A DNA stretch of 64,000 bases from the UHGV virus genome UHGV-1364187; one strand, written 5' to 3'. This document shows, piece by piece, positions 11,652 through 60,011 of this stretch; positions within the stretch are counted from its first letter, which is position 1, and every line of letters starts with the position of its first letter. The stretch is from a virus. A model generated the notes under the pieces. It did no database searches and was not told where the DNA came from. It was given only the letters and a program-made list of their open reading frames with translations. A program made the position numbers and the translations under genes.

Positions 11652-11677
11652 ATATATACTCACATATATAATATATA
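11652..11677 (-). promoter_or_regulatory. Early-promoter-like motif copy (TTTTGATTATATATTATATATGTGAG)
   Basis: Motif recurrence, read directly. Confidence 0.4.
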
Positions 11678-11864: not shown

Positions 11865-13052
11865 CTATACTACATTTTTATGTGTTCTATATTTTACAAT
11901 ATCACTTATAGTACTAATATTATATCCAGTACTATATTTTATTTCAGTTAGTGTCATACCCTCTTGTTCATACATTCTTCTTATATCTCTTACAATATCA
12001 TCTGTTATACTTCTTCCAGGAGCATTGGATAAATCATATTGTTCATATATATCTCTATGTGCTCTACCGCTAGTAATATTCACAATAGTTTTTCTATTTA
12101 TATCAAGATGATGTGATATCATTGTTGGAGTATATCCATTGGAAAACAATATCATTATATTATGCACATCTTCATCTGTAATCTTAGTTGGAACATAAGC
12201 ATTAGATAAATCGTATTGATTTCTAATATCTAAATGTTTCTTTCCACCATATACAATATTAGTTACAGTTTTTCTATTTAAATTTAATTCATCTGCAATC
12301 TGATATGCTTGATACCCTTGAGAATATAATCTAAATATATCATGTAAAGTATCTTCTGGAAGTAATCTTGTAACTTGATCTAATTCTAATTCTTCATATA
12401 CATCTTTATGGCTAGAACCACATGATATATTTCTTACATTAACATATGAAACTCCAGTTTTTTCTGCAATTTCTTTAAGAGATAATGTTGTATCCTTAAT
12501 AAGATTACCAACTTCATAAGCTTTCTCTTTAGATATACATATAGCTTCTACTTCTGGTCTTAATTCTTCATATGAATGATGAACATTTTCTAATGGAGTA
12601 GCCCATTCAAGATTACATAACCAATTACACCATGTACAACCATTTATATGATTGACTTGATATTGTTCTGGATTTTCTATTGGAAGAAATGTCATCATTA
12701 CTAATCTATGAACAAAGTATATATGTTTCTTTCCATCAAGACATGATAATCCAACTCGTAGATATCCTTTATCTGTAGATTGTTGTTGCATGAATACATT
12801 ATTAAGTAATGAGAATATTCTTCCGTAATTACTTACCATATATCTTCCAGGAACAATTTCTTCTGAATTTATAAATACAAATATTTCATCTGGAGCCATA
12901 AGTGGGATATATGTATATTCTTGTTGATAATTTGAAAATTGTTCTGGTATATAATTTGGTGGTAGTTCTTTTCCAGTCTTAGAAATATATGCTGGAATTA
13001 TTAAATTTTTGATTTCTTGTCCTTCTTTATACTCTTTGTTTTTGTAATACAT
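11865..13052 (-). CDS. HNH homing endonuclease (NUMOD4-like N-terminus, HNH_3 core, four NUMOD/IENR-type helix-turn-helix repeats)
   Basis: HRLVMMTFLPIENPEQYQVNHINGCTWCNWLCNLEWATPLEN is a textbook phage HNH motif. The C-terminus has four ~35-aa repeats (..LNLNRKTVTNIVYGGKKHLDIRNQYDLSN..). Confidence 0.8.
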   Translation of the reverse strand: MYYKNKEYKEGQEIKNLIIPAYISKTGKELPPNYIPEQFSNYQQEYTYIPLMAPDEIFVFINSEEIVPGRYMVSNYGRIFSLLNNVFMQQQSTDKGYLRVGLSCLDGKKHIYFVHRLVMMTFLPIENPEQYQVNHINGCTWCNWLCNLEWATPLENVHHSYEELRPEVEAICISKEKAYEVGNLIKDTTLSLKEIAEKTGVSYVNVRNISCGSSHKDVYEELELDQVTRLLPEDTLHDIFRLYSQGYQAYQIADELNLNRKTVTNIVYGGKKHLDIRNQYDLSNAYVPTKITDEDVHNIMILFSNGYTPTMISHHLDINRKTIVNITSGRAHRDIYEQYDLSNAPGRSITDDIVRDIRRMYEQEGMTLTEIKYSTGYNISTISDIVKYRTHKNVV

Positions 13053-13128: not shown

Positions 13129-14364
13129 CTAGTTTATATTTAATATTCCAAATGCATCATTTAACATATCAGTAATGTCAGTAGTTTTAACAACACTATT
13201 ATGAAACGCTTTTAAGCTTCTTTGTTTGGTTGTTGAAGCGATTTTGCTCATAGCCATACCTATATGGGCTATACCTATTCTTCTAAATAGACTACTACCA
13301 CATACCTCACATATATCTTCACCTTCACATAATGCAGCGAATCTAAGATTAACAGTTTTATCTATAAATTGATTCTTTGTATCTGAAGTAATTTCAATTA
13401 CTTTATCTCCTTGTTGGACAAAACAATACATATATTGTTTAATATTCTTCTTTGTTAATTTAACTCTAATTGTACGTTTCGTTTTACAATCACTTCCCTT
13501 AGGAGAAATAGAAATATGTTGAAATCCACTGAATAATAATTTCTCCCAATATCCACCAATTTGAGTTTTGATAGCTCTCGCTGTTGCTCCAGGTGCAATA
13601 GAGTTAGCAAATATATGATAATCCTCTTTAGATATACCATCCATATAACATGATGTAGCTATATCATATTTACCTGTTACGTTATTATATACAGCACCTT
13701 TCATCATACACATATTCTTTAAGTTATTTTCAATATTACCTCTGGCTTTACAATCAAAGATTTCCATCGCATCATCATCTTTTAATATTTCTTTTGTTTG
13801 TGCTATTAATTGATTAGAAATATCTTCTGCTACAACTTCATCACCATCTTCAAGAGCTTTCTTATTCTCTTTAATAAGTTTAGTCTTTAATGGCTTAAGT
13901 TTATCTGATAAAGATAATATAGCATCATCATAATGAGCTGCTAATACTGTAGTTAATCTCATTAGTATTTGTGACTTTAATAAGAAATGTTTTAATGCAT
14001 CTAATGGTACTTTATCTTCCAATCTAGCATATGTAATATCAGATACAATATCATTAAATACATCATCATCTACAGAATAATTTATATACTTTTCTAATTC
14101 AAATAGTTCTTTCTCTATACATAGTCTATTAAATATCCATAACCCTACAGTAGTTGTAAATTCATTCTTATTTCTCTTTCCTTCAGGACCATAAGAATTT
14201 GGTGGAATTTTAATATAATTAAATGGTTCAAATCTTCTTTTATTGTTAAACTTTCCAAGTAATTCTATAATAAGACTTATAGTTAAATCTTTTTCTTCTA
14301 AAGATAATAGATAATCTATATCTTCTTGTTTTGTTATAAACACACCATCTTTTACTTTAGGCAT
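13129..14364 (-). CDS. RNAP beta' subunit, C-terminal fragment (bridge-helix/trigger-loop region)
   Basis: TTTVGLWIFNRL matches beta' TTVGRAILWMIVPK. AKARGNIENNLKNMCMMKGA...ATARAIKTQIGGYWEKLL matches SGARGS..QLAGMRGLMA...ADTALKTANSGYLTRRLV. EDICEVCGS matches DFGVCAHCYG. Start chosen at MPKVKDG (AAAGGAG RBS) rather than the upstream ATG that lies inside the RBS. Confidence 0.75.
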   Translation of the reverse strand: MPKVKDGVFITKQEDIDYLLSLEEKDLTISLIIELLGKFNNKRRFEPFNYIKIPPNSYGPEGKRNKNEFTTTVGLWIFNRLCIEKELFELEKYINYSVDDDVFNDIVSDITYARLEDKVPLDALKHFLLKSQILMRLTTVLAAHYDDAILSLSDKLKPLKTKLIKENKKALEDGDEVVAEDISNQLIAQTKEILKDDDAMEIFDCKARGNIENNLKNMCMMKGAVYNNVTGKYDIATSCYMDGISKEDYHIFANSIAPGATARAIKTQIGGYWEKLLFSGFQHISISPKGSDCKTKRTIRVKLTKKNIKQYMYCFVQQGDKVIEITSDTKNQFIDKTVNLRFAALCEGEDICEVCGSSLFRRIGIAHIGMAMSKIASTTKQRSLKAFHNSVVKTTDITDMLNDAFGILNIN

Positions 14365-14454
14365 ATTATAATCTCCTTTCATCTAATTTATATTAATTAG
14401 ATGTAAACAGACAAAAAATAAAAGAGCAGAAACTAATCTACTCTTTTATATGTA

Positions 14455-42899: not shown

Positions 42900-42916
42900 G
42901 AAGGATGTTTATTAAT

Positions 42917-43309
42917 ATGAAGAAAGTATTTTTAGGCGGTACATGTAACGAAAGTACATGGAGAGACGAGTTAATTAAATTACTTAAGATTGATTATTTT
43001 AATCCAGTAGTAAAAGATTGAACAGAAGAATGTATGAAAGAAGAAATTAAACAAAGACAAATTTGTGATTATTGTCTTTATGTAATTACACCTAAGATGA
43101 CTGGTGTTTATTCTATCGCTGAAGTTATAGATGATAGTAATAAAAAACCAGATAAGACTATCTTTTGCTTTCTAAAAACTGATGGTAAATTAGTATTTGA
43201 TTTAGGTCAAATTAAATCACTTAATCAGGTAGGAAGTATGGTTGTTAGAAACGGTGGCAAATTCTTCAAATCTTTAGAAGAAGTGGCTAATTTTTTAAAC
43301 AATAATTAG
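42917..43309 (+). pseudogene. Nucleoside 2-deoxyribosyltransferase-like (Rossmann-like) gene interrupted by an in-frame TGA at 43019-43021; either a pseudogene or a readthrough gene
   Basis: GGAAGGA RBS then ATG. MKKVFLGGTCNESTW...YFNPVVKD-TGA-TEECMKEEIKQRQ.. continues in the same frame into ORF 43034..43309. KVFLGG..W resembles the KIY(F/L)AG..W N-terminus of N-deoxyribosyltransferase-fold proteins. Confidence 0.4.
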
Positions 43310-43441: not shown

Positions 43442-44305
43442 ATGGAAGAATTTAAAAGTGTAATTAAAAGAAATGGTAAAATTGTAGATTACGATAGAAA
43501 TAAGATTAAAACTGTTGTTAGAAATAGTGGTCTTACAGATGAAGATAAATTAGAAGAATTTACATTGGAAGTTGAAAAACGACTACTAATAGAAAATGAA
43601 TCAGTTGATCATCAAGGTATATTTGATGTTGAACTAATTCAAGATATTATCATCCATCTGTTAGGACTATTAGGATATAAAAACGAACAAAATGAGTATA
43701 AGAGATATAAGAAAGAACGAGAAAAGATTAGACAGTCTAAATCTGATTTATTAAAAGTGGTTCATTCATTAGGTGTTGAAACTGATAGAGACAATGGGAA
43801 TGTTGGTAATAACTTCAGTGCCAAGTTATTACGTATTGCTAGCGAAACAAATAAATGTACGAATCTAGCATTAAATATTCCTAAGCATTTAGCGAAACCT
43901 CATGAAAATCATGATTACCATACTCATGATCTAGATAGTTATAATCTTACTACAAATTGTTTACATAATGACACTGGTGCTATATTAAAGAGAGGATTTA
44001 ATACTGGATATGGGTGGATTAAACCACCTAAAAGAATCGAATCAGCTGCCAACCTTACATGTATTATTATTCAATCACTTCAGAATGATTTTTATGGTGG
44101 GCAATCTTGTGTTGATATTGATAATGACCTTGGTGAATATGTAGAACCAACAAGACAAGAAATTATTGAAAGATTAGAACCTACAAGAAAATATGTACCA
44201 GAAGATGTATTCAATGATACAGTTGAAAGAATGTTAGATGAACAAATTCATCAAGCAGCACAGAATATTTGTTATAATCTTAATACTATGCATAGTAGAG
44301 CAGGT
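43442..44305 (+). CDS. nrdD: Anaerobic ribonucleoside-triphosphate reductase NrdD, exon 1 (ATP-cone and N-terminal region)
   Basis: AAGGAGG RBS. MEEFKSVIKRNGKIVDYDRNKIKTVV is an ATP-cone. HDLDSYNLTTNC...NLNTMHSRAG is colinear with class III RNR. The 3' exon boundary is approximate. Confidence 0.75.
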
Positions 44306-45463
44306 CAAGATGACTTAGCCGTGTTAGATAGAAATATCTAATATGATTATCGGGGAAATTCGGTAGAGGTCTAAGTAAGATTATCAATTAAAAAGAAATG
44401 ATGATATTTATGAATTATAATAAAACTGAAATTGAAAGATTATATTTTGAAGAAAATATGACATATGATCAAATATCTGAAATTGTAGGATGTTGTAAAT
44501 CTACTATAGGAAATATTATTAGATCAAATCCAAACTATAAAAAGAAATCACAAACACTATATAGTAATCCATTATTAGATGAAAATTATTTTGAAATAAT
44601 AGATACAGAAGCAAAAGCTTATATATTGGGACTTATGATAACAGACGGGAATGTTTGTTATTATGGTGATGGATATCGTATTAGATTACAATTAAAATAT
44701 GAAGATTCTTATATTTTAGAATTCTTTAAAAATCAGATTCACTGTTCCAATAAACTTATTGTTGATAAGCGAGATGGTTCTATTGCATTTAGTATAAAAT
44801 CAGAAAAGATGTTTTATGATTTATCTAAATATGGAGTAGTTCCTAATAAAACTTTAAATAATTATGTTCCACCAAATATACATCCAATGCTAATGCCTCA
44901 TTTAATAAGAGGAATATTTGATGGTGATGGTTGGATATCAAAATCGTTTGATAAAAATGGAAAGAAACATATAGCTATTGGTATTTGTGGAAATGAAAAT
45001 TTTCTTCAACAATTCAGGATATATTAGTAATAAATGCTCGAGTAAATATGAATATTATAAATTCTTATAGCTCAATTAATGAAGCTCCATTATACCAAAC
45101 AATGTGGTGTTCTATTGGAGATATTATTAGATTATATAGTTATTTATACATAGGTGCTAATATATATCTATTTAGAAAATATCATACTATAATTGATATA
45201 ATTTTATATGAAAATACCGAGAGGGCTTTAATCGAAAGTCTTTGTAACGCATAGGAGTTGAACGTTATGATAGTAAAAATACTCCCAAGAGTCTCCGACA
45301 CAATATACTATAGGTATATTTGAGGTGGAAATTGCTCACCACCAAACCTAACGTTAAACGAGGGTGAATATATATGCTAGGCTGGATTGGAAATGACCAA
45401 TCGATGAAAATGAGGGAAACCTCCAGAGGTCTAGATAAAAAGCTAGACGTTAATAACAGTCCG
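44306..45463 (+). mobile_element. Group I intron 1 in nrdD (~1158 nt) carrying a LAGLIDADG homing endonuclease ORF
   Basis: Separates ..MHSRAG from SQVPFSSLN, which are contiguous in NrdD homologs. The 3' portion has CCGAGAGGGCTTTAATCGAAAGTCT and GAGTCTCCGACAC core elements similar to intron 2, plus a terminal hairpin gtctag..ctagac and a final G. Confidence 0.65.
44398..45027 (+). CDS. LAGLIDADG homing endonuclease (two motifs) with an N-terminal helix-turn-helix, encoded inside nrdD intron 1
   Basis: AYILGLMITDGNV is motif 1 and HLIRGIFDGDGWIS is motif 2. Confidence 0.8.
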   Translation: MMIFMNYNKTEIERLYFEENMTYDQISEIVGCCKSTIGNIIRSNPNYKKKSQTLYSNPLLDENYFEIIDTEAKAYILGLMITDGNVCYYGDGYRIRLQLKYEDSYILEFFKNQIHCSNKLIVDKRDGSIAFSIKSEKMFYDLSKYGVVPNKTLNNYVPPNIHPMLMPHLIRGIFDGDGWISKSFDKNGKKHIAIGICGNENFLQQFRIY

Positions 45464-45766
45464 AGTCAAGTTCCATTTAGTAGTTTAAATATTGGACTTC
45501 CTAAAAATAAAAATGGTGCTAGAGTATGTATGGCATTATTAGAAGAATACGATAAAGGTATGGGAAAAGGAGAACAAATGATTTTTCCTAATATTATCTT
45601 TAGATGTAAAAAAGGTATTAACAAAAATCCTAATGATCCATATTATTATTTATATGATAAAGCTTGTGATGTAGCAAGTAGACATATGAATCCAACATTT
45701 ATGAATATTGATAGTAAAATTAATATGGAGTTATGGAAAAAAGGTATTACACCTGCAATCATGGGT
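45464..45766 (+). CDS. nrdD: NrdD, exon 2
   Basis: SQVPFSSLNIGLP...FPNIIF...PAIMG continues NrdD; the exon ends with ...ATG GGT immediately before the in-frame TAA. Confidence 0.65.
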
Positions 45767-46075
45767 TAACAGAAAATGTTACACGGTTTCTACAGCTCAT
45801 GTAAAACCTATCTAAACAGGGAAAGCTCATAAGAGTCAATCCTGTGCTAAATTCTAATATTATATAGAATATATAATTATTTATACATTGTATATAGTAC
45901 TAGATAAATGCCGAGAGACTATCGAAAGACTATTTTATATAGAATCAAGTAGAGTAGGATACAAGTGTATTCGAAAAGATAGGCTTAGATATTTATATTA
46001 TCTATGAAGATATAGTCCGACACCTATAGTGATATAGGAAAGATTATGGAAACGATAATCTTATAACAAGAAATG
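45767..46075 (+). mobile_element. Group I intron 2 in nrdD (ORF-less, ~309 nt)
   Basis: Contains an exact S element AAGATATAGTCC (gaAGATATAGTCCgacac), GCCGAGAGACTATCGAAAGACT (shared with intron 1 and the beta' intron) and an IGS-like ACCTAT complementary to the exon end ATGGGT. The intron ends in G, and the junction restores the conserved MG-CR motif (PAIMG|CRTYVG). Confidence 0.7.
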
Positions 46076-47035
46076 TGTAGAACATATGTAGGTACAAATA
46101 TCAATGGTCAAGAAGGACCATCTAGAAGAGGAAATAATGCACCTGTTACTATTAATTTACCTAGATTAGGTATTAAAGCTAAAGGTGATTTAAATAAATT
46201 CTGGAGTTTATTAGATGATATGCTTAATTTATGTAAAGAATCTTTATTACATAGACATAGTATATTATGTAAACTTAGAGTAAAAGATTTACCATTTGCT
46301 GCAGGAGAAGGTATTATGATGGGTTCAGAAAATCTTGGACCTGATGATACTATCGAACCAATTCTTAAGAACGGAACATATGGAATTGGATTTGTAGGTT
46401 TAGCTGAAACATTAGTAGCATTAATTGGTAAACATCATGGTGAATCTAAAGAAGCTGACGAATTAGGATATAAAATTGTAAGTCACATTAGAGAATATTG
46501 TGATAAAACTAAAGAAGAGACACATCTTAATTTCTCATGTTACTATTCACCTGCTGAAAGTACAGCTGGAACATTTGCAAATGCAGATAGAGAAAAATAT
46601 GGTATTATTAAAGGAGTTACTGACCATGATTTCTATACAAATTCTGTTCATATTCCAGTGTATTATAATATCTCTATTAAAGATAAGATTGATATTGAAT
46701 CTAAATATCATTATTTAGGAAATGGTGGTCATATCTTTTATGTGGAAGTTGATGGATATCCATCTAAAGAACAAATTAAGAAAATTGTAGATTATGCGTT
46801 TGATCAAAGTGATATTAGTTATATGGGAATTAATTTCCATATTAGATATTGTAAAAAATGTGGTAAACGTGTAACGAATAATGTTATGGTATGTGATTGT
46901 GGAAGTACAGCTTTCCAAGGTATTAGTCGTATTACTGGATATTTAGCCCTAGATGGAAGATGGGGTCAAGGAAAAGTTGCAGAAAGAAAAATGAGAGTAT
47001 CGCATACTACAGGTAAAAATGTATATACAGAATAA
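46076..47035 (+). CDS. nrdD: NrdD, exon 3 (C-terminal glycyl-radical domain and zinc ribbon)
   Basis: CRTYVG..INLPR; CKKCGK..CDCGS zinc ribbon; glycyl-radical motif SRITGYLAL. Confidence 0.75.
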   Translation, partial: CRTYVGTNINGQEGPSRRGNNAPVTINLPRLGIKAKGDLNKFWSLLDDMLNLCKESLLHRHSILCKLRVKDLPFAAGEGIMMGSENLGPDDTIEPILKNGTYGIGFVGLAETLVALIGKHHGESKEADELGYKIVSHIREYCDKTKEETHLNFSCYYSPAESTAGTFANADREKYGIIKGVTDHDFYTNSVHIPVYYNISIKDKIDIESKYHYLGNGGHIFYVEVDGYPSKEQIKKIVDYAFDQSDISYMGINFHIRYCKKCGKRVTNNVMVCDCGSTAFQGISRITGYLALDGRWGQGKVAERKMRVSHTTGKNVYTE

Positions 47036-47449: not shown

Positions 47450-47791
47450 GTGTTTTATATGATTAAAGAGATTAAGATTGGTGGAATTAGAAGAACAAGA
47501 TGTGGGTATTATATCTTAAATATTAATGGTGATAATATTTGTTATATCTTTGATGATTCAGAACGTTATAATAAGATTATTATGTATAGAAATATTGAAG
47601 ATATTCCTTCATTATTATCTATTAAAAGTTCTGGAACTAATATTATTTCTATTAAAGGTATAGCTATAAATACAAAGAATAAAACAATTATAATACAAAC
47701 AAAAACTAAAACATATTGTATTAAACCAAAAGAACATAATAAATTAACATTTGAAGACATGTATGAAAGATTAGAAAGGATGTGTAAATAA
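47450..47791 (+). CDS. Standalone paralog of the NrdG N-terminal extension domain (113 aa)
   Basis: AAAGGAGAG RBS. MIKEI.., EDIPS, GIAINTK..II.QT and YE.L.R blocks are shared with residues 1-105 of the next gene. The stop overlaps the next start (TAATG). Confidence 0.5.
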   Translation: MFYMIKEIKIGGIRRTRCGYYILNINGDNICYIFDDSERYNKIIMYRNIEDIPSLLSIKSSGTNIISIKGIAINTKNKTIIIQTKTKTYCIKPKEHNKLTFEDMYERLERMCK

Positions 47792-48621
47792 TGATTAAAG
47801 AGATATCACAATTCACAATTAAACTTGTAGAAAAAGACACATATGGAGAGACATATAATGTTCTTAATAGAAAGGATATTACAATATGTACTCTATATAA
47901 ATCTAAATTAGGAACAGTTAGAGTATATTTATCAGAAGATAAATATGTTAGTGTATATGTATTTGATGAAGATATACCATCTATAGATAAACTCATTACT
48001 GGTATTGCGATCAATACAAAAAGAAATAATATTATACTTCAAACTAATGAAAGAATAATTTCATTTAGACAAACTGATAGTGTATACGAACAACTTATGA
48101 GATATGTTTCTAATTCATATAAATTACAAGTTGCAGGATTTTATGATAATAGTTCAGTTAATGGACCTGGATTAAGATCTGTTTTATTTGTATCTGGATG
48201 CAAGTTTAATTGCCCAGATTGTCAAAATAAAGAAGCTCAATCTATGACCTATGGAGATAAAGTGAGTGTAGGTGAAGTTGTAAAAAGAATTAAATCAAAT
48301 ATCCCAATTATAGATGGCGTTACATTAAGTGGTGGAGAACCAACGTTACAATCAGAAGCATTATTAGATTTAGTAAAAGATTGTAAGAAGTTAGGTTTAA
48401 ATGTTTGGATGTACACTGGAGATAAATATGAAAATCTTATGAAAGATCCAGTAAAATCTAAATTAGTTAAATCAGTTGATGTATTAGTAGATGGAAGATA
48501 TGTAAAAGAATTAAATGATCCTAATCTATTGTATAGGGGAAGTTCTAATCAAAGAATTATTGATGTATCTAAATCTACTGTAGATGATATTGTATTATGG
48601 GATGAAAGTGAGGACTTTTAA
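47791..48621 (+). CDS. nrdG: Anaerobic RNR activating protein NrdG (radical SAM) with a ~105-aa N-terminal extension
   Basis: GPGLRSVLFVSGCKFNCPDCQN is the CxxxCxxC radical-SAM/NrdG motif; SGGEPTLQ follows. Confidence 0.75.
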   Translation: MIKEISQFTIKLVEKDTYGETYNVLNRKDITICTLYKSKLGTVRVYLSEDKYVSVYVFDEDIPSIDKLITGIAINTKRNNIILQTNERIISFRQTDSVYEQLMRYVSNSYKLQVAGFYDNSSVNGPGLRSVLFVSGCKFNCPDCQNKEAQSMTYGDKVSVGEVVKRIKSNIPIIDGVTLSGGEPTLQSEALLDLVKDCKKLGLNVWMYTGDKYENLMKDPVKSKLVKSVDVLVDGRYVKELNDPNLLYRGSSNQRIIDVSKSTVDDIVLWDESEDF

Positions 48622-49943: not shown

Positions 49944-52900
49944 ATGGCACAAAGAACAAGTTTAACAAAATATGCAAAGAATTTAGTAAAATCAACTAAA
50001 TATGCTACTGTTGATGTTGTAAAGGAATTAATGCCAAGTGCAACAGATTTTATGGAAACAAATAATGAATTATTTAAAGATATTACGTCTAATATACGTA
50101 ATAGACGTGTTATTTTTAAAAGAGTAAACGATAAAGTTACTCAATCAAAAATCTATGAAACTGTAGATGAAGCTAGAAAAAATATCATAGAAGATATAAA
50201 ATCTGGTAATTTATATAACAAAGATCCAATCAGAGAAAGACGTATTAATAAAAAATCTGGTATGGAGAGTATGTTAGGTGGATTTGATGATTTTAGTGAT
50301 TTTGAGTTTGAAATGGATGATTCATTCGAATTTGAAGATAGTGATAATGCCGAATTAGCTGATGCTTTTGATGATTCTAATAGAACAACATCAGAAATGA
50401 TCGCTAATACAATTGCAAAAACATCATCTAATCAGATCCAATCACAAAGAATATCAAGCCAGATGACAATGATGCAATTACAAGAAGGATTTACATTAGT
50501 AAATTCAAATCTTGGTGGAATAGGTAATGCTATTTCTGAATTAGGGAATACTATGTCATCTATTCAACAAACTAATGCTGAAAATGCAAAAACTTATTAC
50601 GAAAAATCTACTGACTTGCAAGCTAATATGGTATCATATCTTAAAGAGTTAGTAGATATGAAAAAATCTGAAATGGGATTAGATGCTAAGAAAGATACAT
50701 CTCGTGGACCTAAATCATATAATGACATAACTACATATGAAGGTATGCCTGATCTTAGAGCATATGGTAATATATTAGCTAGTAAATTAAATGATAATTT
50801 ATCAATGATTACAGGTCTTAATGAAATGGGTATCGAAGGTGGAAACATGTCAATGCAATTTGCTATGTCACCACTTGCATTTCTTCCTAAGATGGTTGTA
50901 AAGAAGGTTATGGGAGTAGCTGTTCAAAATTCAGCAAAAGCTTTAGATAATACATTATCAAATATATTTGGTACATTCATATCTGCTATGAATGATATGG
51001 CTGATAATTCTGGATATATGTCAATAAAAGGAATGATAGGACGATTCTTTGGTTTAAATGACACTGTAAAAGATGAACGTAGTATAAGAACAGACTATGA
51101 TAAAGGAAATAAATCATGGAATGGTAAAGCCGAAAAAGCATTAACTGAAGTAATTCCTACATTAATTTCTAAAATTTTAGCTGTAGTATCTGGAGCAAAT
51201 GAGATGACATATAACTACGATAATGGTAAATTTACTACAGTAAAACAATTAAGACAAGATGTAAAAAATAGAACTACTAATGAAATGAATAGTGCATTTT
51301 ATGATATAAGAAATAAAATGGACGAAATGATGAGATCTATTAATTTTGATTTTTCTGATGAAGACACTAAAGCATCATTTGAAAAAGATTATAATAGATT
51401 CTTTGAATATTTCTTTAAATCTAATAATAGATTTAATCCAAATAAGAAAAACTATGAAGATTATGATGGTCTTGGTATTGATAGAGGTAATTTTGAAATT
51501 ATATCTACATTGTTTGAAAGACTAGATCCATCATTAAAAATGTCTATGGATAGTAAAAAAATAAGAGCTAGAGGTGCTATTAATGATTATATTGATAAAT
51601 TAGGACAGAATAGTCCAGTATATACTATCCTTAATAATGATTCAAAATTAACAGATGTCGATAAATCTGTAGATGGAAAATCTGGAGGGTTATTAACAGC
51701 ATCTAAAGATTCATTAGGACATGACATATTCTGGTTTTTGGATAATATTCTTAAATCTATTAGAGATTTAAATCCAGATTCTGAATATAATGTAAATGGA
51801 AAGAAACGTAAAAAGAAAAGAACTAAAAATATAACTTCAACTCCTATTGTTCCATCTTCAGATAAAACATCTTCTGCTGGAAATAGGAAGAGATATGTTA
51901 GTCCAGATGCTCTTACTGCAGAATCTATATTATATAATAGAGCAGAGGGTACTACTATATCTGGTATTATTAATAATAGATTGGATATTGCTGACGAACA
52001 GAGAAAATTGGAGGAAGAAGAAAAAACATCTATTATTGATGATTTATTAGACTCACCATCTTTACCAGCGAAAGCTAAAGCTTTCATGAAAAGAATGAAA
52101 TCTACTAAAGAAGGTGCTAGAAATGGTATATCTGGACTTTTAGATACTGTAAATCTTAAGATATATCAAGCTATGTATGGTAATAAAAAATATAAAGGTA
52201 AGGATGTAAATGGTATTATAGGAGTAATGATGGAAAATATCGAAGAATCATTCACCAAGTTCAATACATTCTTAGATGAAAAGATCTTATCTCCATTGAA
52301 AGAAAAGTTAGATGAACAAGGTGGAATTAAAGGTATTCTTAAAAACACATTAGGAATAGATGTTGATTCTATTAAAGAAAGATTCTTTGGTAAAGATACT
52401 CTTTTTGGTAGAACTGTTCAATCTATTAAAGATAATTTTAAATCTGCTTATGAGTATTCTAAAGGAGCTGTAAAAAACACATACAATGAAATCTATGATA
52501 AATTAGGTGGAAATAGATACAATAGTAGATTCAATCGTGTAATGAACACTATTAAATATGGTAAGAAAAATACACAAGGTATGTTTATTGTAGATTCAGA
52601 TGGACAACTTAATATACTTAATCAAGTAAAAAAAGTTAAACCTTCAAATGTTACAGAAGATGGAAGATTAAACACTCAAGAAGAAGCTTCATCTGTTATG
52701 GAAGGACAAATGAGTTTCTTACCAAAAGACGAACAACAAGCTATAAAAGAAGCTGCAAATAATATGAATGTTCCAGTAGAAAATATTGCAGATGCAATCA
52801 ATAAAGGTAATATCGAAAAATATGCTAAAGGTGGAAATATTCATAAAACTAAAATTGTTATGGTTCATGATGGAGAAGAAATCATTACCAAAGAAGAAAA

Positions 52901-55900
52901 ACGTAAGAGAGATAGAGAAAGAGCTTATGATCTAAGAGTTAAAAATAACATAAATAAACTAAATACTGAAATGAGCGAAGATTTTGTTGGGCCTTTACCT
53001 TTAAAAGATCAAAAAATAAAAGATTTCTTATCTGGAATTAATGAAGAAAACCTTGGAACTATTAAAGATTCTTTAGGAAAAGATTTTAAAGCTACTACTG
53101 TAGAAACTTTAAGACAGGAAATTATAGAAGCTGTTGGTCATAAAAAAGGTGATCCTACATTAATGGAAACCATGAAAGACACTGCATCTGATGGAATAAA
53201 TAAAGTAATGTCAGTGTTATTTGGTACAGATGAAAATGGTGATGAAAAAGCTGATGATCTTAAAGAACGTGGAAAAGCTGCAATGAAAGATATTATGGGT
53301 AAATTTAAAGAATATCTCCCATCTGGAATATCTGGTGCATTAATTGGTACTCTAGCTGGTGGTGTTGTTGGTATGCCTATGATTGGTGCAGCATTGGGTT
53401 CATCTATTAATCTTATTAGAAAATCAGATAAACTTCAATCATATTTATTTGGAGATTTAGATGAAGAAGGTAAGAGAATAGGTAATGGTAAACTTCCAAC
53501 CAAATTTGTAGATGCTATGAATAAATATGGTCCAGATATGAAAAAGTACGGTATTACAGGTGCAATTACATCTATTTTACCTTTTGTTCCTGGTGGTCCT
53601 GTTGCTGGATTATTATTAGGAGCAGGTGTTGGGTTTGCTAAAAATAACGCTAAAGTACAAGACTTCTTATTTGGAGATATGGGCATATTAAAAGGTCTTA
53701 AAGGTAGTGGTGAGAAATTAAAGAAAGCTTTACCTAAAATGGGTCTAGGTGCGGCTGCTTTAGCATTAACTGGTCCATTCGGTTTACTTGGTAATGCTAT
53801 GCTTGGTGCTGGTGCAGGATTTGTTACTCAAACAAATAAATTCCAAGAATTTATGTTTGGTAAAGATGGTAAAGATAAAGATGGTAACCCTATTAAAGTT
53901 GGTGGATTTTTACCAATGATTAGGGATAGAGTAATCAACCCTATTAAAGAATTTGGTTCTACATTAGGTGATAAAGTTAAAACTTTTGTAGATGAAGAAA
54001 TAAGAAAACCATTTCATAAAGCAATGAGTCCATTTATAGAAGAATTTAAATACCAAGGTAAGAGATTGTTTGATGGTATAAAAGATTCTATCAGTGGAGC
54101 TATTAATAATGTATTTGAAAAGTCAGTTGGTAAACCATTAAATGAACTTATCGAAGATAAGATTGTAAAACCAATTACAGGATTATTTAAGAAAGTATTT
54201 AACTTTTTAGGAGGTATTGTTGGTGGTATTCTTAAATTCCCTACTAAAATCATGTCAGGAGCTGCAGACTCTTTAAGAATTAAACATTTAAAACAAGGTC
54301 GTGCTGATTATATGTCTGATGAAGAATTAGGTGAATTAAAAGAAAAGAAACCATTTGATTATTTAATGGCTACATCAGGACAACGTTTCATAAATGCACT
54401 TAATGAACGTGGTTTATTTGGTTCTATGAAAGATTTATTTACTAGAGATAAAGATGAAGTTGTTACTGACGAGGAATCTGTTAAAGAAAAGAAACCTACA
54501 TTCAGAGAAAAAGTATCAGGAATAGTAGCTAAAGGTTTAGATTCTTATAATGCTAAAAGATTAGCTATTACAGAAAGAGTATCATCTGGGTATGCTAATA
54601 CTAAAGAAGAATTAAGAAATGCTAAACAAAATCTTAAAACAAAAGCTTATCAAGCTGCAATGAATGCAACAGATAAATTATCAGCTAGTATTGAAGCTGG
54701 TAATAGGTATTCTAAAGTTTCTTCTTATAGGGAATCAGAAACAGAAAGCGAGGGAGACTCGACTGGTTCTTCAGAGAAGCGTGTTGATCTTAGAACTAGA
54801 ACACCTAAAATTAAATCTGTAAAAACACAAAATGTAAGTTTAGTAAATCCAGAAGTTGATGCTTTGAAACAACAAGTAAAACAATTAACCACCGAGCTTG
54901 CAGTAATGCAAAAAGAAAAAGAAGAAAATAAAGATACATCTTCAGACAAATCATCAGAATATATCAAAGATATAAGAGATGAGGTTAGAGGGCAATTAGA
55001 TGGAGTTGGATACAATATCCATACGATTGCTAATATACTAGTAGAACAATTCGGTATGCCTAAGATTAAAGCTACAGGTGCTAAAGTATCTCGTGGAAAT
55101 CTTAAACGAAAATTATGGTTTGAGAGAATGTTTGGATTTATTCTTAATCCTGTTAGAAAAGTTAAAGATAGTATTCATAATCTATTCTGGGGTAAAGATG
55201 GTAATGGTGGTTTATTAGGCACTCCAATGAGATGGGTTAAGAAAGGATTTGAAAAAATAGGTAATATTGGAACATTAATTGGAAAAGGATTAGCTGGTAT
55301 ACTAAATATTGGTTCAGGTATTGTTCATGGACTTGGTATATTAGGTGGTATCTTTAAAGAAAGTTTAGCTGCAATAGCTCCAGCTATTGGAAGTTTATTA
55401 AAAGGTGCAGTTAAAGTATTAACGTTACCTATCGATTTATTATCAGGTGCAATATCAGGTCTTGGTAATATGCTTGGTGGATTAGCTAATGGTATTGGTA
55501 TTCTTGCTGGAAAAACTATTGAACTTGTTTCTTTAGTTCCATCATTAATTACTAATATTGGTAAACTGACTATTGAAGTTGGTAAATTTGCATTCAAATT
55601 AGTTAAGAAAGGTGCAGAACTTATAACAGCTCCAATAAGATGGATGGCTAATGGTATTATTGATATATTTAGAGGAAAAAATAAGAAAAATAAAAAGAAA
55701 GAAATCAAGCATATTATAGAAGGTGGTTTCTTAGATAAAATCAAAGAACCTATCGATATTAGTGGTGAACAAGATAGACATGATAAATTATTATCTTTCT
55801 TTGATGATAAATTTAATAAATTATTTGATTTATTAAGTGGAACTGATAATAAAAAGAAATCTATTACAAATAATATTACTAATAAAGAAGAAATAGAAGA

Positions 55901-58900
55901 AGATAAACCAAAATTATCTACTGAAGAATTACAAAAGATGTCATTTAGTGATTATATTAGATCTGGTCAAAGTATGTCTCTTGATGATTTAGAAAGATAT
56001 GCAGACGCAAGAAAGAATCTAATGACTACTGTTAAAAAACCAGAACAACCTGCTAATAATGGAGATGTATTGAAAAAATCTTTATATGATATTATCAATG
56101 ATAATAGAGCAGGAATGAAACCATCATATGATAAACCACTAAATGTTCAAACTGAAGAACAAATTAATATGCCTACTGAATTTGGTGTTATTAGATATGA
56201 TAAAGATACTTCTGGTGAATTAAGACCAGTACAAGACTCAGTGTATACTCAGTATAAAGAAAATCAAGATAATCTTGCTGAACACAATTCAAAAATGTTC
56301 AATCTTCTTAATACTGGAGATGCAGAGGATGACGGTAAATCTACTAAGAAAGAATCTTGGATTTCTAAGATTGCTAAAAATATTGGTAGTGTATTAATGG
56401 GTGGTACTCTTCTTAAAGTTGTTGGTGCAGGTTTAATGGCTGGTGCTGTATATGATCTAGCTAAGAATGGAGAAAATTCATTTGTTGGTAAATTTGTTTC
56501 TTTCTTTAGTGATAAAGTTTTACCAAAAATAGTAGATTTTACAATAAATACAGCAATTCCAGTATTAACAGATGCATTACTTTCTCTGTCAGAAATGATA
56601 TTAGATAGAGTTACAAATCCACAAAAATATTCAAATCCAGATCATGAATTATCAAAAGCTAATGCGAAAGCTAAACTCAGTGATGGATCTTATATTACTG
56701 ATGATGGAGTTTATGATAAAAATGGTAATTGGATAATGCAATCATATACACCTACCACAACTGGTTCATTAATAGAAAAAGGTTGGAATAAAATAGCTGG
56801 AAATAAAATAGAATCATGGGCAAAAGATACATTCGGTGAGAATTCAATAGGAGCTAGATTATTTTCAACAAATGTATTATCAACAACTATAGATGATAAA
56901 GAGATAGAAAATGTTTCTCATAAAAATTCAGAAACAACAAAAACTAATAAAAACAAAGAAGAAACAATGTCAGATAGTGAGTTCTTTTCTAAAGCTATAT
57001 TTGGCAAAGGTAAAAAGAAATATGGTCTAGGTGAATCATTCTTCTCACAAAATGATCCTAGATGGAGTAATTTACCATTTAATACTGAAAATGATACAGA
57101 AGCTCAAACTATTGCAGATTCTGGTTGTGGTCCAACAGCCGCAGCTATGGTAGCTGATCAATACGGAAGAGCTAATCCAGTAGAAGCTTCAGCTTTCGCT
57201 TTAAATAATGGATATAAAGAACAAAATGGTGGTACTGATCCTAGATTCTTTAAAGATTATTTCAATAAAAAAGGTATTGATAGTGATATTGATACAGATA
57301 TTGATACTAATTCTGATAAGAAATTATCTATTATTAATAATCTTAGAAAGAATAAACCTGTTGTATTAATGGGTAAATCTAAAGGTGGTAATACACCATA
57401 TGGTAAAGAATATCCACATTATGTTGTAGCTACTGGAATGAGAGGCGACAAGATTCAAATTAATGATCCCAACTCTAATCATGGTGGAGAATTATACGAT
57501 GCTAATGATACACTTAGATCTTCAACTATAAGCGTAAAAACTGGCAGAGGTAAGAAATCTAAATATGGTAGAGTAAATATGCAAGCTATGCTTGACACAA
57601 CAATGAATGTTGCTGGAGCTGTATCAGGTGCAGTTATGCCTACATCTAGTACATCATCAGTAGCTAGAACGGTAACAAATAACTTCAGTAGTGCTAGTGG
57701 ATTTGCAACATCATCAGATGGATCTTTAACAGAAGGTAAAAGTGCACTTAATTTCGTAACAGATTTAGGTACCACATTTACTAAAGCTATCGGTGAATTC
57801 TTTGGTGTTGATATGTTTTCTAGTAATACTGCTAGTAGAGATGTTGGTTCCTATGGTTCTATGGGAGGTTCTGTACAAGTAGGTACGGCAGGTCAATGTT
57901 TTGATGCTAACGTTGCAGCTCAAGTTATCAATGATTTCTTTAAAAATAGTCCTAAACTTAGTGGAAAAGGTGCTACTATTGTATCTATTGCTCAACAAGC
58001 TTGTCATAAAAGTGCTAATGGACAAAATCCTGGTATTGATCCATTCATTCTTGCAGCTATTATGATGCAAGAAACAGGAGGAAATTCTAATGCATTAAAT
58101 AACAAGAATAACCCTGGTGGTGTTAAGGGAAGTAATGGATTACAAGTATTTAGTACAATTGAAGATGGTATTATGGCTGTTGCTAAGATTATCCATAGAG
58201 AATGGGTAGTTAATGGTAATAGCAGTATTGCTGGATTAGGTAGTATTTATTGCCCAGTAGATGCTGCAGATGATCCTAATGGATTAAATAAAAACTGGGT
58301 TGGAGGAGTAACCAAATTCTATAACCAGTTAGTACAAGCAGCTATAGCTGCAGGAGGTTTATTAGGTACTTCTGATAATATGGCTATTAGTAATATGGGA
58401 ACAGCTAATAATGTTGCAATACAAATTGTACGAATAGCTAAATCATATATAGGCAAAGTTAAATATGTATTTGGTGCAGAAACTCCAGATAAAGGTGTAT
58501 CTGACTGTTCTGGATTTACTCAAGCTGTATATAGAAAAGTAGGTCTTGCTATTGGTAGAAATACTGAAGCACAAATTACTAATAAAAATATTGTAAAAGT
58601 TAGTGATTCATACAACTTTAAAGCTCAACCTGGTGATTTAATATTCTTCAAAAACACTTACAATTCTGGATATATTTATGGTGTATCTCATGTTGGTATT
58701 TGTACTGGAGAAGGAACAAAATTTATTGAATGTAATAGTAGTAAGGGTGTTTGTGTAAGTGATTATACTAGTAACTATTGTAAGAAATATTTCTTAATGA
58801 TTAAACGTCATACTGCATGTGTCGACAAGAATGCTATGTATAAGACATCTCAAGCACAACAAACTGCTAAAAAAGCAAATACTACAACTGCAACAACTAC

Positions 58901-60011
58901 TACTAAATCAAATGATCCACTTAAAAATGCTAATAACGCTATTAATTCAAAAAATGCAACTTACAATGCATATAATACCCTTTCAGGAAAAGGTAAATCA
59001 AAAGATATTAGATATAACTCTGATATTAAGAAACCATCTAAGAGAATTAATAGAACTGTGTCTAGTAATAATGATTATTTAGAAGAAATAAATTATGGTA
59101 AAGGAATTGGAAAAGTAAACTTAGAAAAACTTAAGAAATTACCAAAAGTTCAAAAATTAATTTCAGAAGAGTTATCTAAAGCTGTTAAGAACAAGTCAAA
59201 AACTCCAGTATCTACAGCTGCAGCAAAAGTATATGCTAAGCTTAAAGCTTCTAAATTTACTGATGTAACAGATTCTGAAGGAAATTACATTGATTTCGTT
59301 GAACTTGAAAGAAACAATAATGCTACTCCTATTGTTGATGGTAAATTAAACTTAAGAGAATTTGATGCTGATGGGAAATTAATCGATTGGGATGCTGTAA
59401 ATGAGAAGAATGGTGTTGTTACAAAACAGGATGATACTCCAGTTATTGGAGAAGCTAATCCTATCTCTACAGTATTAAATACAATCTATAATAAACTTAC
59501 AGGGAATAATCAAGATACTGCTAAGAAAGAAGATCTTGATTCTGAAGGTAATAAAATAGATTGGAATGAAGTTGAGAAGAATAACAACATCGAGGTTAAG
59601 ATTCCTACTAATGCTTCTCAATTAACAGATCAACAATTGAAGAAGAAAGAAGCTGAGAATAATACTACTCAAACTAATACGACATCTACAAACAATAATA
59701 CAAAAGAACAACAGCAAATTGAGGCTCAACAAAAAGCTGTAGAAGCTAAACAAACTCAAGTTGATAATCAATTGACTGCATTAACTAATATAGCTAAATC
59801 TGTAGAGAGTATTTATAACTTAATATTATTATTAGTAAATAATGGTATAGATATTAAGAACTTAGCTGAAATTCTTAAAGCTATTGGTGTATCATCATGT
59901 GATGGAGGAAGCAATAATGCGTTCTTTATTCCACAAAATAATACACAATCATCAGATGCCCATAATGCCGATATGGAACTTCTAAGTAAACTTAAAGAAA
60001 TAGCTAAATAA
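49944..60011 (+). CDS. Giant virion-associated, tape-measure-like protein (3355 aa) with three C-terminal peptidoglycan-hydrolase-type domains
   Basis: AAAGGAGG RBS. Three Gly-rich hydrophobic repeats each ending ..Q(D/E)F(L/M)FG; a glycine-zipper segment (GLAGILNIGSGIVHGLGILGG). C39-like peptidase signature ADSGCGPTAAAMV (~aa 2393). Lytic transglycosylase motif ILAAIMMQETGG (~aa 2700). NlpC/P60 motif VKYVFGAE..DCSGFTQAVY..HVGICTG (~aa 2850). C-terminal coiled coil. Confidence 0.75.
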   Translation: MAQRTSLTKYAKNLVKSTKYATVDVVKELMPSATDFMETNNELFKDITSNIRNRRVIFKRVNDKVTQSKIYETVDEARKNIIEDIKSGNLYNKDPIRERRINKKSGMESMLGGFDDFSDFEFEMDDSFEFEDSDNAELADAFDDSNRTTSEMIANTIAKTSSNQIQSQRISSQMTMMQLQEGFTLVNSNLGGIGNAISELGNTMSSIQQTNAENAKTYYEKSTDLQANMVSYLKELVDMKKSEMGLDAKKDTSRGPKSYNDITTYEGMPDLRAYGNILASKLNDNLSMITGLNEMGIEGGNMSMQFAMSPLAFLPKMVVKKVMGVAVQNSAKALDNTLSNIFGTFISAMNDMADNSGYMSIKGMIGRFFGLNDTVKDERSIRTDYDKGNKSWNGKAEKALTEVIPTLISKILAVVSGANEMTYNYDNGKFTTVKQLRQDVKNRTTNEMNSAFYDIRNKMDEMMRSINFDFSDEDTKASFEKDYNRFFEYFFKSNNRFNPNKKNYEDYDGLGIDRGNFEIISTLFERLDPSLKMSMDSKKIRARGAINDYIDKLGQNSPVYTILNNDSKLTDVDKSVDGKSGGLLTASKDSLGHDIFWFLDNILKSIRDLNPDSEYNVNGKKRKKKRTKNITSTPIVPSSDKTSSAGNRKRYVSPDALTAESILYNRAEGTTISGIINNRLDIADEQRKLEEEEKTSIIDDLLDSPSLPAKAKAFMKRMKSTKEGARNGISGLLDTVNLKIYQAMYGNKKYKGKDVNGIIGVMMENIEESFTKFNTFLDEKILSPLKEKLDEQGGIKGILKNTLGIDVDSIKERFFGKDTLFGRTVQSIKDNFKSAYEYSKGAVKNTYNEIYDKLGGNRYNSRFNRVMNTIKYGKKNTQGMFIVDSDGQLNILNQVKKVKPSNVTEDGRLNTQEEASSVMEGQMSFLPKDEQQAIKEAANNMNVPVENIADAINKGNIEKYAKGGNIHKTKIVMVHDGEEIITKEEKRKRDRERAYDLRVKNNINKLNTEMSEDFVGPLPLKDQKIKDFLSGINEENLGTIKDSLGKDFKATTVETLRQEIIEAVGHKKGDPTLMETMKDTASDGINKVMSVLFGTDENGDEKADDLKERGKAAMKDIMGKFKEYLPSGISGALIGTLAGGVVGMPMIGAALGSSINLIRKSDKLQSYLFGDLDEEGKRIGNGKLPTKFVDAMNKYGPDMKKYGITGAITSILPFVPGGPVAGLLLGAGVGFAKNNAKVQDFLFGDMGILKGLKGSGEKLKKALPKMGLGAAALALTGPFGLLGNAMLGAGAGFVTQTNKFQEFMFGKDGKDKDGNPIKVGGFLPMIRDRVINPIKEFGSTLGDKVKTFVDEEIRKPFHKAMSPFIEEFKYQGKRLFDGIKDSISGAINNVFEKSVGKPLNELIEDKIVKPITGLFKKVFNFLGGIVGGILKFPTKIMSGAADSLRIKHLKQGRADYMSDEELGELKEKKPFDYLMATSGQRFINALNERGLFGSMKDLFTRDKDEVVTDEESVKEKKPTFREKVSGIVAKGLDSYNAKRLAITERVSSGYANTKEELRNAKQNLKTKAYQAAMNATDKLSASIEAGNRYSKVSSYRESETESEGDSTGSSEKRVDLRTRTPKIKSVKTQNVSLVNPEVDALKQQVKQLTTELAVMQKEKEENKDTSSDKSSEYIKDIRDEVRGQLDGVGYNIHTIANILVEQFGMPKIKATGAKVSRGNLKRKLWFERMFGFILNPVRKVKDSIHNLFWGKDGNGGLLGTPMRWVKKGFEKIGNIGTLIGKGLAGILNIGSGIVHGLGILGGIFKESLAAIAPAIGSLLKGAVKVLTLPIDLLSGAISGLGNMLGGLANGIGILAGKTIELVSLVPSLITNIGKLTIEVGKFAFKLVKKGAELITAPIRWMANGIIDIFRGKNKKNKKKEIKHIIEGGFLDKIKEPIDISGEQDRHDKLLSFFDDKFNKLFDLLSGTDNKKKSITNNITNKEEIEEDKPKLSTEELQKMSFSDYIRSGQSMSLDDLERYADARKNLMTTVKKPEQPANNGDVLKKSLYDIINDNRAGMKPSYDKPLNVQTEEQINMPTEFGVIRYDKDTSGELRPVQDSVYTQYKENQDNLAEHNSKMFNLLNTGDAEDDGKSTKKESWISKIAKNIGSVLMGGTLLKVVGAGLMAGAVYDLAKNGENSFVGKFVSFFSDKVLPKIVDFTINTAIPVLTDALLSLSEMILDRVTNPQKYSNPDHELSKANAKAKLSDGSYITDDGVYDKNGNWIMQSYTPTTTGSLIEKGWNKIAGNKIESWAKDTFGENSIGARLFSTNVLSTTIDDKEIENVSHKNSETTKTNKNKEETMSDSEFFSKAIFGKGKKKYGLGESFFSQNDPRWSNLPFNTENDTEAQTIADSGCGPTAAAMVADQYGRANPVEASAFALNNGYKEQNGGTDPRFFKDYFNKKGIDSDIDTDIDTNSDKKLSIINNLRKNKPVVLMGKSKGGNTPYGKEYPHYVVATGMRGDKIQINDPNSNHGGELYDANDTLRSSTISVKTGRGKKSKYGRVNMQAMLDTTMNVAGAVSGAVMPTSSTSSVARTVTNNFSSASGFATSSDGSLTEGKSALNFVTDLGTTFTKAIGEFFGVDMFSSNTASRDVGSYGSMGGSVQVGTAGQCFDANVAAQVINDFFKNSPKLSGKGATIVSIAQQACHKSANGQNPGIDPFILAAIMMQETGGNSNALNNKNNPGGVKGSNGLQVFSTIEDGIMAVAKIIHREWVVNGNSSIAGLGSIYCPVDAADDPNGLNKNWVGGVTKFYNQLVQAAIAAGGLLGTSDNMAISNMGTANNVAIQIVRIAKSYIGKVKYVFGAETPDKGVSDCSGFTQAVYRKVGLAIGRNTEAQITNKNIVKVSDSYNFKAQPGDLIFFKNTYNSGYIYGVSHVGICTGEGTKFIECNSSKGVCVSDYTSNYCKKYFLMIKRHTACVDKNAMYKTSQAQQTAKKANTTTATTTTKSNDPLKNANNAINSKNATYNAYNTLSGKGKSKDIRYNSDIKKPSKRINRTVSSNNDYLEEINYGKGIGKVNLEKLKKLPKVQKLISEELSKAVKNKSKTPVSTAAAKVYAKLKASKFTDVTDSEGNYIDFVELERNNNATPIVDGKLNLREFDADGKLIDWDAVNEKNGVVTKQDDTPVIGEANPISTVLNTIYNKLTGNNQDTAKKEDLDSEGNKIDWNEVEKNNNIEVKIPTNASQLTDQQLKKKEAENNTTQTNTTSTNNNTKEQQQIEAQQKAVEAKQTQVDNQLTALTNIAKSVESIYNLILLLVNNGIDIKNLAEILKAIGVSSCDGGSNNAFFIPQNNTQSSDAHNADMELLSKLKEIAK

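Follow-up and report, generated by a model that had tools for sequence, protein, structure and literature searches.

Group I introns in phage ribonucleotide reductase (RNR) genes are a classical finding. Among the RNR genes of 128 surveyed phage genomes, nrdD was split most often, and nrdE was seen to carry two introns adjoining functionally important residues in phage Twort and three introns in Brochothrix phage A9 (PMC3653736). The Jug phages, jumbo phages of the gut, have a fragmented nrdD in 95 of 104 genomes, with as many as four pieces; metatranscriptome reads support splicing in this group, whose endonuclease genes include LAGLIDADG members (PMC12880540). Here we describe the nrdD locus (plus strand, 43442-47035) in a 64,000-nt window, the whole stretch of DNA analysed, of the viral genome UHGV-1364187; all coordinates are positions in this window. 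The source is an uncultured, AT-rich gut jumbo phage of about 256 kb with its own multisubunit RNA polymerase, and its nrdD is very probably interrupted by two group I introns. As in Twort, A9 and the Jug phages, several self-splicing introns would share one RNR gene, near conserved catalytic residues, some with endonuclease genes and some without, although the phage lineage is a different one. Multi-intron nrdD genes have already been published, and the present case is a new example with no new mechanism.

A reading of the letters and open reading frames (ORFs) of this DNA alone, here called the sequence-only reading, had recognized three NrdD-like ORFs on one strand, separated by segments of 1158 and 309 nt. 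The ORF listing bears this out (the first ORF ends at 44341, the second spans 45374-45769 and the third 46073-47035), and both segment lengths are exact (Table 1). The start of exon 1 agrees with the gene called on the source contig and with the N-termini of homologues. All three exon lengths are multiples of three, and joining the exons in silico yields an in-frame 708-aa protein with a single terminal stop, which matches Pfam NRDD (573 bits) and an ATP-cone. Residues 5-703 of this protein align with the Prevotella-type NrdD structure PDB 8p23 (E 7e-126) with a gap at neither junction, and the alignments to PDB 9d3x and to the T4 structure 1h78 are likewise gap-free. A search of 5.8 billion proteins returned thousands of uninterrupted NrdDs of about 705 aa (700-734) at 57-60% identity and 98-99% coverage, the named ones from Clostridia (Cellulosilyticum, Clostridium, Niameybacter, Epulopiscium). 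In an alignment of seven sequences, six clostridial NrdDs included, the junctions lie inside the invariant blocks NLNTMHSRAG/SQVPFSS and MG/CRTY (a slash marks a splice junction). Because the structural alignment is gap-free and both junctions sit in invariant blocks, no residue is missing or duplicated at either one, and removal of the second intron restores the MG-CR junction as had been predicted. Also as predicted, T ends both upstream exons and G ends both introns.

Without splicing, the frame of exon 1 would stop 12 codons into intron 1, and that of exon 2 at the first intron codon (TAA). In the joined protein Cys390 aligns with T4 Cys290, whose equivalent we take to be the thiyl-radical cysteine of class III RNR, and Gly677 aligns with T4 Gly580. 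All features of a class III NrdD are present: the NRDD domain, ATP-cone, Cys loop, Zn-ribbon, glycyl-radical motif and a nearby nrdG. Reference-collection phages held no close NrdD, the best being about 36% identical over its full length. Three other explanations of the split ORFs were considered and rejected. Inteins are ruled out by the in-frame stops that follow both exon ends, and group II introns by the lack of an Rfam match together with the presence of complete group I cores. Genome-wide recoding of TGA or TAG was rejected since code 11 leaves long genes of 3355 and 1445 aa unbroken and stop reassignment mostly adds spurious ORFs. Separately, we noted that nrdD of Eggerthella phage EL753P1 is a single 952-aa coding sequence (CDS) that matches NrdD in two pieces and has an in-frame insertion of about 1 kb, which is probably an intein.

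Intron 2 is the more readily recognized of the two elements. In a local scan of 1.9 kb it passes the Rfam group I threshold, matching the full model RF00028 (positions 1-253) at 51.3 bits against a gathering score of 50 (E 1.2e-11). The exact S box AAGATATAGTCC reported in the sequence-only reading was found at 46007-46018. The same reading had taken ACCTAT for the internal guide sequence (IGS). That hexamer is present at 45806-45811 and is roughly complementary to the exon end ATGGGT, but it is the 5' strand of P3, in which the Rfam alignment pairs ACCUAUC (45806-45812) with GAUAGG (45978-45983). We assigned the guide by analogy with the T4 nrdD intron. GCUCAUG (45795-45801) pairs with the exon end CAUGGGU (45760-45766) over 7 bp, with a U.G pair at the splice site, and UUCUACA (45788-45794) is perfectly complementary to UGUAGAA at the start of exon 3 (46076-46082), giving a P10 of 7 bp. 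The insertion site, ATGGGT/TGTAGA, directly precedes the Cys390 codon.

A distant BLAST search found the P3-P5 core of intron 2 in about 200 phage records, mostly Felixounavirus. In Salmonella phage Meda (MH586731) the match lies inside an nrdD CDS annotated as two joined pieces with an HNH gene between them; the reconstructed exons, which end in CCGATGGGT and resume with TGTAGAGCA, encode a clean 714-aa protein containing SPMG/CRAF. The Meda intron occupies the same insertion point as intron 2, ATGGGT/TGTAGA (Met-Gly/Cys-Arg), begins with the same bases, UAAC, and has homologous sequence in P1-P6 and P7-P9. It is 742 nt long and carries an HNH endonuclease, whereas intron 2 is 309 nt long and ORF-less, and intron 2 has an additional 14-nt hairpin in the P1 loop. 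Both guide helices show compensatory change. P1 is formed by CAUGGGU with GCUCAUG in intron 2 and by GAUGGGU with GCUCAUC in Meda; P10 is formed by UGUAGAA with UUCUACA in intron 2 and by UGUAGAGC with GCUCUAUA in Meda. The NrdD proteins themselves are only 25% identical, and the phages are unrelated, one infecting Enterobacteria and the other a jumbo phage with a clostridial-like NrdD. Felix O1 is reported to have no introns (PMC3185647); the genus is therefore polymorphic for this element, which is what a mobile intron would be expected to show.

The nrdD (sunY) intron of phage T4 is a further relative. From the T4 record we derived the junction UAUGAGU/UAACGU, an intron of 1033 nt and a spliced product of 605 aa that carries Cys290 and Gly580. 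This intron has the same IGS, GCUCAUG, and P3-P5 core as intron 2, and intron 2 is homologous to both the T4 and the Felixounavirus nrdD introns. The T4 intron also shares a conserved nrdD block with intron 1. It breaks codon Tyr180; the position equivalent to intron 1 lies 32 nt farther downstream, and intron 2 some 200 codons downstream. T4 has a single intron with a GIY-YIG ORF (I-TevII), whereas the window has two, one ORF-less and one with a LAGLIDADG ORF. The sequence-only reading had described nrdD as invaded twice by a different endonuclease family from that of T4. This is imprecise, because intron 2 is an ORF-less relative of the T4 intron and shares its site with the HNH-bearing Felixounavirus intron. 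An identical guide serves different nrdD sites, with exon ends UAUGAGU/ in T4 and CAUGGGU/ in the window, and may be a trace of ectopic intron transposition.

Intron 1 is larger and more divergent. Its ribozyme had been placed in the 3' half of the segment, which is too simple: P1, P2 and the 5' strands of P3, P4 and P5 precede the endonuclease ORF, in the first 92 nt. Intron 1 is inserted after the counterpart of T4 codon Gly190, at a site near, but not identical with, that of the T4 intron at codon 180. With the ORF deleted and its loop replaced by GAAA, the minimum free energy (MFE) fold yields P2, P3, P4, P5a, P6, P7.1, P8 and the P9 domain. We classify the intron as group IA-like because of the P7.1 hairpin between P7 and the 3' strand of P3. 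For P1 we propose the guide listed in Table 1; the overlapping UGACU (44311-44315) can form P10 with AGUCA of exon 2 (45464-45468). This guide assignment is supported by an intron in a tail gene of Staphylococcus phage vB-SscS-F1, which has the same exon end, GCAGGU/, and a GCC guide.

Homologues of intron 1 occur in unrelated phage genes. Its last 100 nt or so are 86-90% identical, depending on search mode, to the gyrA introns of AR9, PBS1, BpSp and phiR1-37. Megablast against phage genomes gave 88-90% identity to intergenic or intron DNA of Yersinia phage phiR1-37 and of the Bacillus phages AR9, PBS1, vB_BpuM-BpSp (BpSp) and Internexus. The AR9 match lies inside gyrA, annotated as three joined pieces, and in phiR1-37 two gyrA fragments, with a 311-aa ORF between them, enclose the match. 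A more sensitive search added a helicase intron of the crAss-like phage cr6_1, a terL intron of Clostridium phage vB_CpeS-1181, the major-tail-protein intron of Staphylococcus phage vB-SscS-F1 and a compact element of Arcanobacterium phage TPWB06. To judge by these matches, intron 1 belongs to a promiscuous group IA-like family residing in gyrA, terL, tail and helicase genes. The gyrA introns of AR9/PBS1, BpSp and phiR1-37 share its core helices and a near-identical 3' domain, and phiR1-37 g328 belongs to the same endonuclease family as the intron 1 ORF (PHROG 4645, 30% identity). The host genes differ, gyrA versus nrdD, as does the ORF: in phiR1-37 it is intact at 311 aa and lies upstream of P3, whereas in the window it is frameshifted and lies in the P5 loop. 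The gyrA-intron phages resemble the window phage also in having multisubunit RNA polymerases, to judge by the title of an AR9 paper (reference 10 of PMC12350094). Several of the split genes in this family are annotated in GenBank as separate CDSs.

Covariation supports the core structure. A script applied to seven homologous sequences found the helices P3-P4-P6-P7-P7.1-P3'-P8-P7' in canonical order, with the P3/P7 pseudoknot, and every helix pairs. P3 changes in a compensatory manner between the window (CGGGGA with UCUCCG), the Staphylococcus phage (UGCGAA with UUCGCA) and cr6_1 (CGAGCA with UGUUCG); P7 is GCAUA with UAUGC in five of the seven sequences and GCGUA with UACGC in the other two. 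In a six-sequence alignment of the 3' domain 99.1% of cells are paired, and 12 of 19 pairs have changed on both sides; none of 500 shuffles reached the observed pairing, and slid controls were 18-45% paired. A covariance model of this domain scores 115 bits in the window and finds one copy there and no second, and a pattern search of viral contigs for the domain recovered AR9 and phiR1-37 only. Family members that contain an endonuclease gave no Rfam match. The ORF-less TPWB06 element aligns with the full RF00028 model at 39.9 bits (E 6e-9, below the gathering score), with the same P3, P8 and J8/7 assignment, which ties the family to group I independently of our hand analysis. The family is not uniform in where the endonuclease ORF lies. 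In the window and in the Clostridium phage it occupies the P5 loop and in the Staphylococcus phage the P8 loop, whereas phiR1-37 and cr6_1 have it upstream of P3. LAGLIDADG ORFs are present in the introns of the window, phiR1-37 and cr6_1; the ORFs of the Clostridium and Staphylococcus phage introns are cysteine-rich, with no Pfam LAGLIDADG match and no significant similarity to the LAGLIDADG ORF.

Several observations nonetheless weigh against two functional introns. Rfam scans of the whole 64-kb window, in gathering and in E-value mode, missed both; for intron 2 this is a speed-filter artefact, since the local scan detects it. Intron 1 itself never matches RF00028: the local scan gave no hit at E<=10 in 44306-45463, where the sequence-only reading had located a ribozyme core. 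Such a miss is expected with an insertion of about 800 nt in L5. In the P1 of intron 1 no more than three pairs involve the exon, a C-A mismatch is present, and MFE folding favours a different P1 pairing that puts U-A at the splice site. The P8 region is enlarged by about 45 nt of hairpins that no relative has. The endonuclease ORF is interrupted. Intron-less relatives were distant only, at most 53% identical in viral-contig and metagenome scans and at most 60% in the 5.8-billion-protein search; exact-protein look-ups returned near-identical intron-plus contigs only, and no intron-less allele of this nrdD was found. The sequences show the anatomy of the locus, its homologies, the covariation and the restored reading frame; splicing itself, past homing and the loss of endonuclease activity are what we infer.

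These points raise the question of whether nrdD is dead or dying because splicing of one or both introns has ceased, above all of intron 1, whose P1 is weak and whose P8 is enlarged, so that no full-length NrdD is made. The short P1 with its competing pairing would fit this, as would the endonuclease gene, already frameshifted, and an in-frame TGA in the neighbouring deoxyribosyltransferase-like gene, a sign of some regional decay. We consider it very improbable nevertheless, because the exons are free of stops and frameshifts and keep all invariant residues of the alignment (Cys390, the Zn-ribbon cysteines and Gly677 among them), the core helices of both ribozymes and nrdG are intact, and the locus is 99.9-100% identical in more than 10 samples. 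Another way to dispense with splicing is for the three ORFs to be translated separately and to assemble as a split NrdD, as has been described for the NrdA of Aeromonas phage Aeh1, split by mobE. An ATG does precede exon 2 (45374) and exon 3 (46073), gene callers predict three proteins, and a functional split RNR has been described (PMC3653736). Yet both ATGs lie inside ribozyme elements (the 3' strand of P7 and the last three intron bases), and the two segments are complete ribozymes whose proposed guides match the exon ends. The homologous Felixounavirus locus is, moreover, annotated as a joined CDS. The second break would also separate Gly389 from the catalytic Cys390, a region that we take to be the tip of the active-site finger loop of class III RNR. 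With these points against it, separate translation is exceedingly improbable.

Under the two-intron explanation, nrdD would be transcribed as one precursor in which each intron folds as a ribozyme and removes itself by two guanosine-initiated transesterifications, and the ligated mRNA would encode the 708-aa NrdD. Intron 1 would have entered nrdD 32 nt downstream of the T4 intron position, probably by double-strand-break homing, for which the LAGLIDADG gene in its P5 loop would have supplied the enzyme. The endonuclease gene would then have been frameshifted and have begun to decay after the intron became fixed in the phage lineage.

The condition of that gene is itself informative. The two-motif, 209-aa LAGLIDADG ORF noted in the sequence-only reading is present at 44398-45027 with both motifs, AYILGLMITDGNV and LIRGIFDGDGWIS (LGLMITDGN and RGIFDGDGW), but its product is truncated and the gene is not intact. 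The ORF matches Pfam LAGLIDADG_3 at 22.6 bits (24.2 in another run; threshold 22.5) and PHROG 4645 at 149 bits over profile positions 44-245 of 308, and is 30% identical both to phiR1-37 g328 and to the cr6_1 intron ORF. It stops 40 aa after the second motif, and the last 60 or so profile positions lie in the -1 frame. Accordingly, tblastn of the homologues switches to that frame, where the C-terminal motif LY.GA.IYL.RKY is found in ORF 45048-45254. A repaired fusion reaches PHROG position 304 of 308, and the frame-repaired protein matches the archaeal LAGLIDADG structure PDB 2dch with both motifs covered (E 5.5e-7). A single-sequence AlphaFold2 model of the 209-aa ORF had a mean pLDDT of 40.8 and was not used. 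The C-terminal coding part overlaps the 3' strands of P5 and P4, P6 and the 5' strand of P7. A gene pair of 205 and 68 aa was called on contigs of at least six samples, and the frameshift is real rather than an assembly error because 99.9-100% identical contigs come from more than 10 samples and two assemblers.

Most likely, the endonuclease gene is decaying after fixation of the intron, a common fate in the homing-cycle model. It is also conceivable that a full-length enzyme of about 285 aa is made by programmed -1 frameshifting at A_AAU_UUU (44997-45003), in which case ribosomes would pass through P4'-P7 and making the enzyme would go with inhibited splicing. This canonical X_XXY_YYZ heptamer (A_AAT_TTT in the DNA) is exactly where the -1 frame opens, the two frames overlap by only 28 nt, the fusion scores 167.3 bits against PHROG 4645 compared with 169.3 for an indel-repaired version, and the arrangement is unchanged in all assemblies. 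The samples are nearly clonal, however, so that such invariance says little; we saw no obvious downstream stimulatory structure, the homologues (phiR1-37 g328 and the cr6_1 ORF) are single-frame, and decay after fixation is the usual fate. We therefore regard programmed frameshifting as quite doubtful; it concerns the endonuclease gene only and is compatible with two group I introns in nrdD. A broader proposal joins it to the history of intron 2: the intron 2, Felixounavirus and T4 introns would form one lineage that occupies two AUG(A/G)GU sites through transposition by IGS-guided reverse splicing, and the intron 1 endonuclease would be made by the programmed frameshift. This combination is unlikely. 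If it were true, production of the endonuclease would be tied to splicing by -1 frameshifting across the ribozyme core, and the same guide at two sites would be the footprint of movement led by the IGS and not by an endonuclease.

Table 1. Positions of the nrdD exons, the two predicted introns and their elements, and associated genes in the window (P3 to P8 and P5a belong to intron 1)
Feature	Position	Strand	Remarks
nrdD exon 1	43442-44305	+	ATP-cone and N-terminal part of the barrel; ends MHSRAG, last base T
Intron 1, group IA-like	44306-45463	+	1158 nt; homing-endonuclease gene in P5 loop; ends in G (45463)
Intron 1 guide	44314-44320	+	CUUAGCC; predicted to pair with GGU/CAAG, U.G at splice site
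Intron 1 P2 hairpin	44324-44341	+	UUAGAUA-GAAA-UAUCUAA
P3	44351-44356 with 45292-45297	+	CGGGGA with UCUCCG
P4	44360-44365 with 45215-45220	+	UCGGUA with UACCGA
P5a	44382-44390 with 45190-45198	+	9 bp; closes the ORF loop
LAGLIDADG homing-endonuclease ORF	44398-45027	+	209 aa; N-terminal HTH-like region; truncated after second motif
-1 frame continuation	44997-45254	+	ATG ORF 45048-45254 (68 aa); missing C-terminal part
Intron 1 3' core	45190-45377	+	
P6	45224-45240	+	
P7	45249-45253 with 45373-45377	+	GCAUA with UAUGC
P7.1	45254-45285	+	
P8	45302-45320	+	Extra hairpins to about 45365, then J8/7
Intron 1 conserved 3' domain	45366-45463	+	P9 three-way junction with GAAA-loop hairpin; terminal hairpin
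Intron-less target sequence for intron 1 site			...ATGCATAGTAGAGCAGGTAGTCAAGTTCCATTTAGT...
nrdD exon 2	45464-45766	+	SQVPFSS...PAIMG, last base T
Intron 2, ORF-less group I, T4-type, IA2-like	45767-46075	+	309 nt; RF00028; ends in G
Intron 2 guide region	45788-45801	+	UUCUACA (P10), then GCUCAUG (P1)
Intron 2 R element	45913-45921	+	GAGAGACUA
Intron 2 S element	46007-46018	+	AAGAUAUAGUCC; J8/7 and 3' strand of P7
nrdD exon 3	46076-47035	+	First codon Cys390; Zn-ribbon cysteines; RITGYL glycyl-radical motif (Gly677); stop included
nrdG activase (radical SAM)	47791-48621	+	Functional partner of NrdD; Pfam Fer4_12 (133 bits), Radical_SAM

The window has a G+C content of 23-32% and codes for several split RNA-polymerase beta and beta' subunit homologues and for virion proteins, which is the gene content of jumbo phages, AR9 and phiKZ among them. 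An identical NrdG occurs on a 256.5-kb European Nucleotide Archive (ENA) contig and on short contigs labelled gut metagenome. The nrdD locus recurs at 99.9-100% identity, with three single-base differences only, in contigs of more than 10 metagenome assemblies, several of them also labelled gut metagenome; such near-identity would mean either that the phage population is almost clonal between samples or that the samples come from one cohort. Upstream of nrdD, a nucleoside 2-deoxyribosyltransferase-like gene (42905-43309, plus strand) is cut into ORFs of 38 and 91 aa by an in-frame TGA (43019-43021). With Trp at the TGA, the fused product gives a single continuous Pfam Nuc_deoxyri_tr2 match (41 bits) that spans the stop, and the gene could be a pseudogene or a case of readthrough or local recoding. 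Downstream, the 3355-aa ORF (49944-60011, plus strand) matches Peptidase_C39_2 and NLPC_P60 and is probably a giant virion-associated cell-wall hydrolase or a tail protein.

A third group I intron candidate lies elsewhere in the window, at about 8500-8990 on the minus strand (RF00028, 40.4 bits, E 1.6e-8 in a local scan, below the gathering score). It has an R element, GUUCAACGACUA, and an S element, AAGAUAUAGUCU, the latter (8569-8580, minus strand) one mismatch from AAGATATAGTCC. The candidate splits an RNA polymerase beta'-like gene between a piece ending ILINR(P) (ORF 8882-10147) and a downstream piece, PTISYGS...AADFDGD, encoded by ORF 8145-8507 and matching Pfam RNA_pol_Rpb1_2. A CCUA repeat at both ends leaves several possible splice sites. 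In the same region a 395-aa HNH endonuclease gene (11865-13052, minus strand; NUMOD4, HNH_3 and several HTH domains) and an unannotated 330-aa ORF (10690-11682, minus strand) lie between the RNA-polymerase genes 13129-14382 and 8882-10147. This arrangement may represent a homing endonuclease of the free-standing kind or a piece of a further intervening sequence.

Three aspects of this locus appear modestly new on the sequences compared here: an insertion site at MG/CR common to very distant nrdD genes, a T4 intron with an identical guide at a different AUGAGU/ site, and a variable position of the endonuclease ORF within one intron family. For annotation, five automatically called genes are to be corrected to one nrdD and one homing-endonuclease gene, the latter most likely decaying. 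An inserted ORF hides members of a widespread phage intron family from the Rfam group I model, and even canonical introns escape scans of whole contigs; both points are relevant to the annotation of jumbo-phage genomes. With homologous introns at the same Met-Gly/Cys-Arg site in genes whose proteins are 25% identical, nrdD illustrates how homing sites track the most conserved catalytic codons, and the locus adds a data point on the movement of self-splicing introns between unrelated phages.

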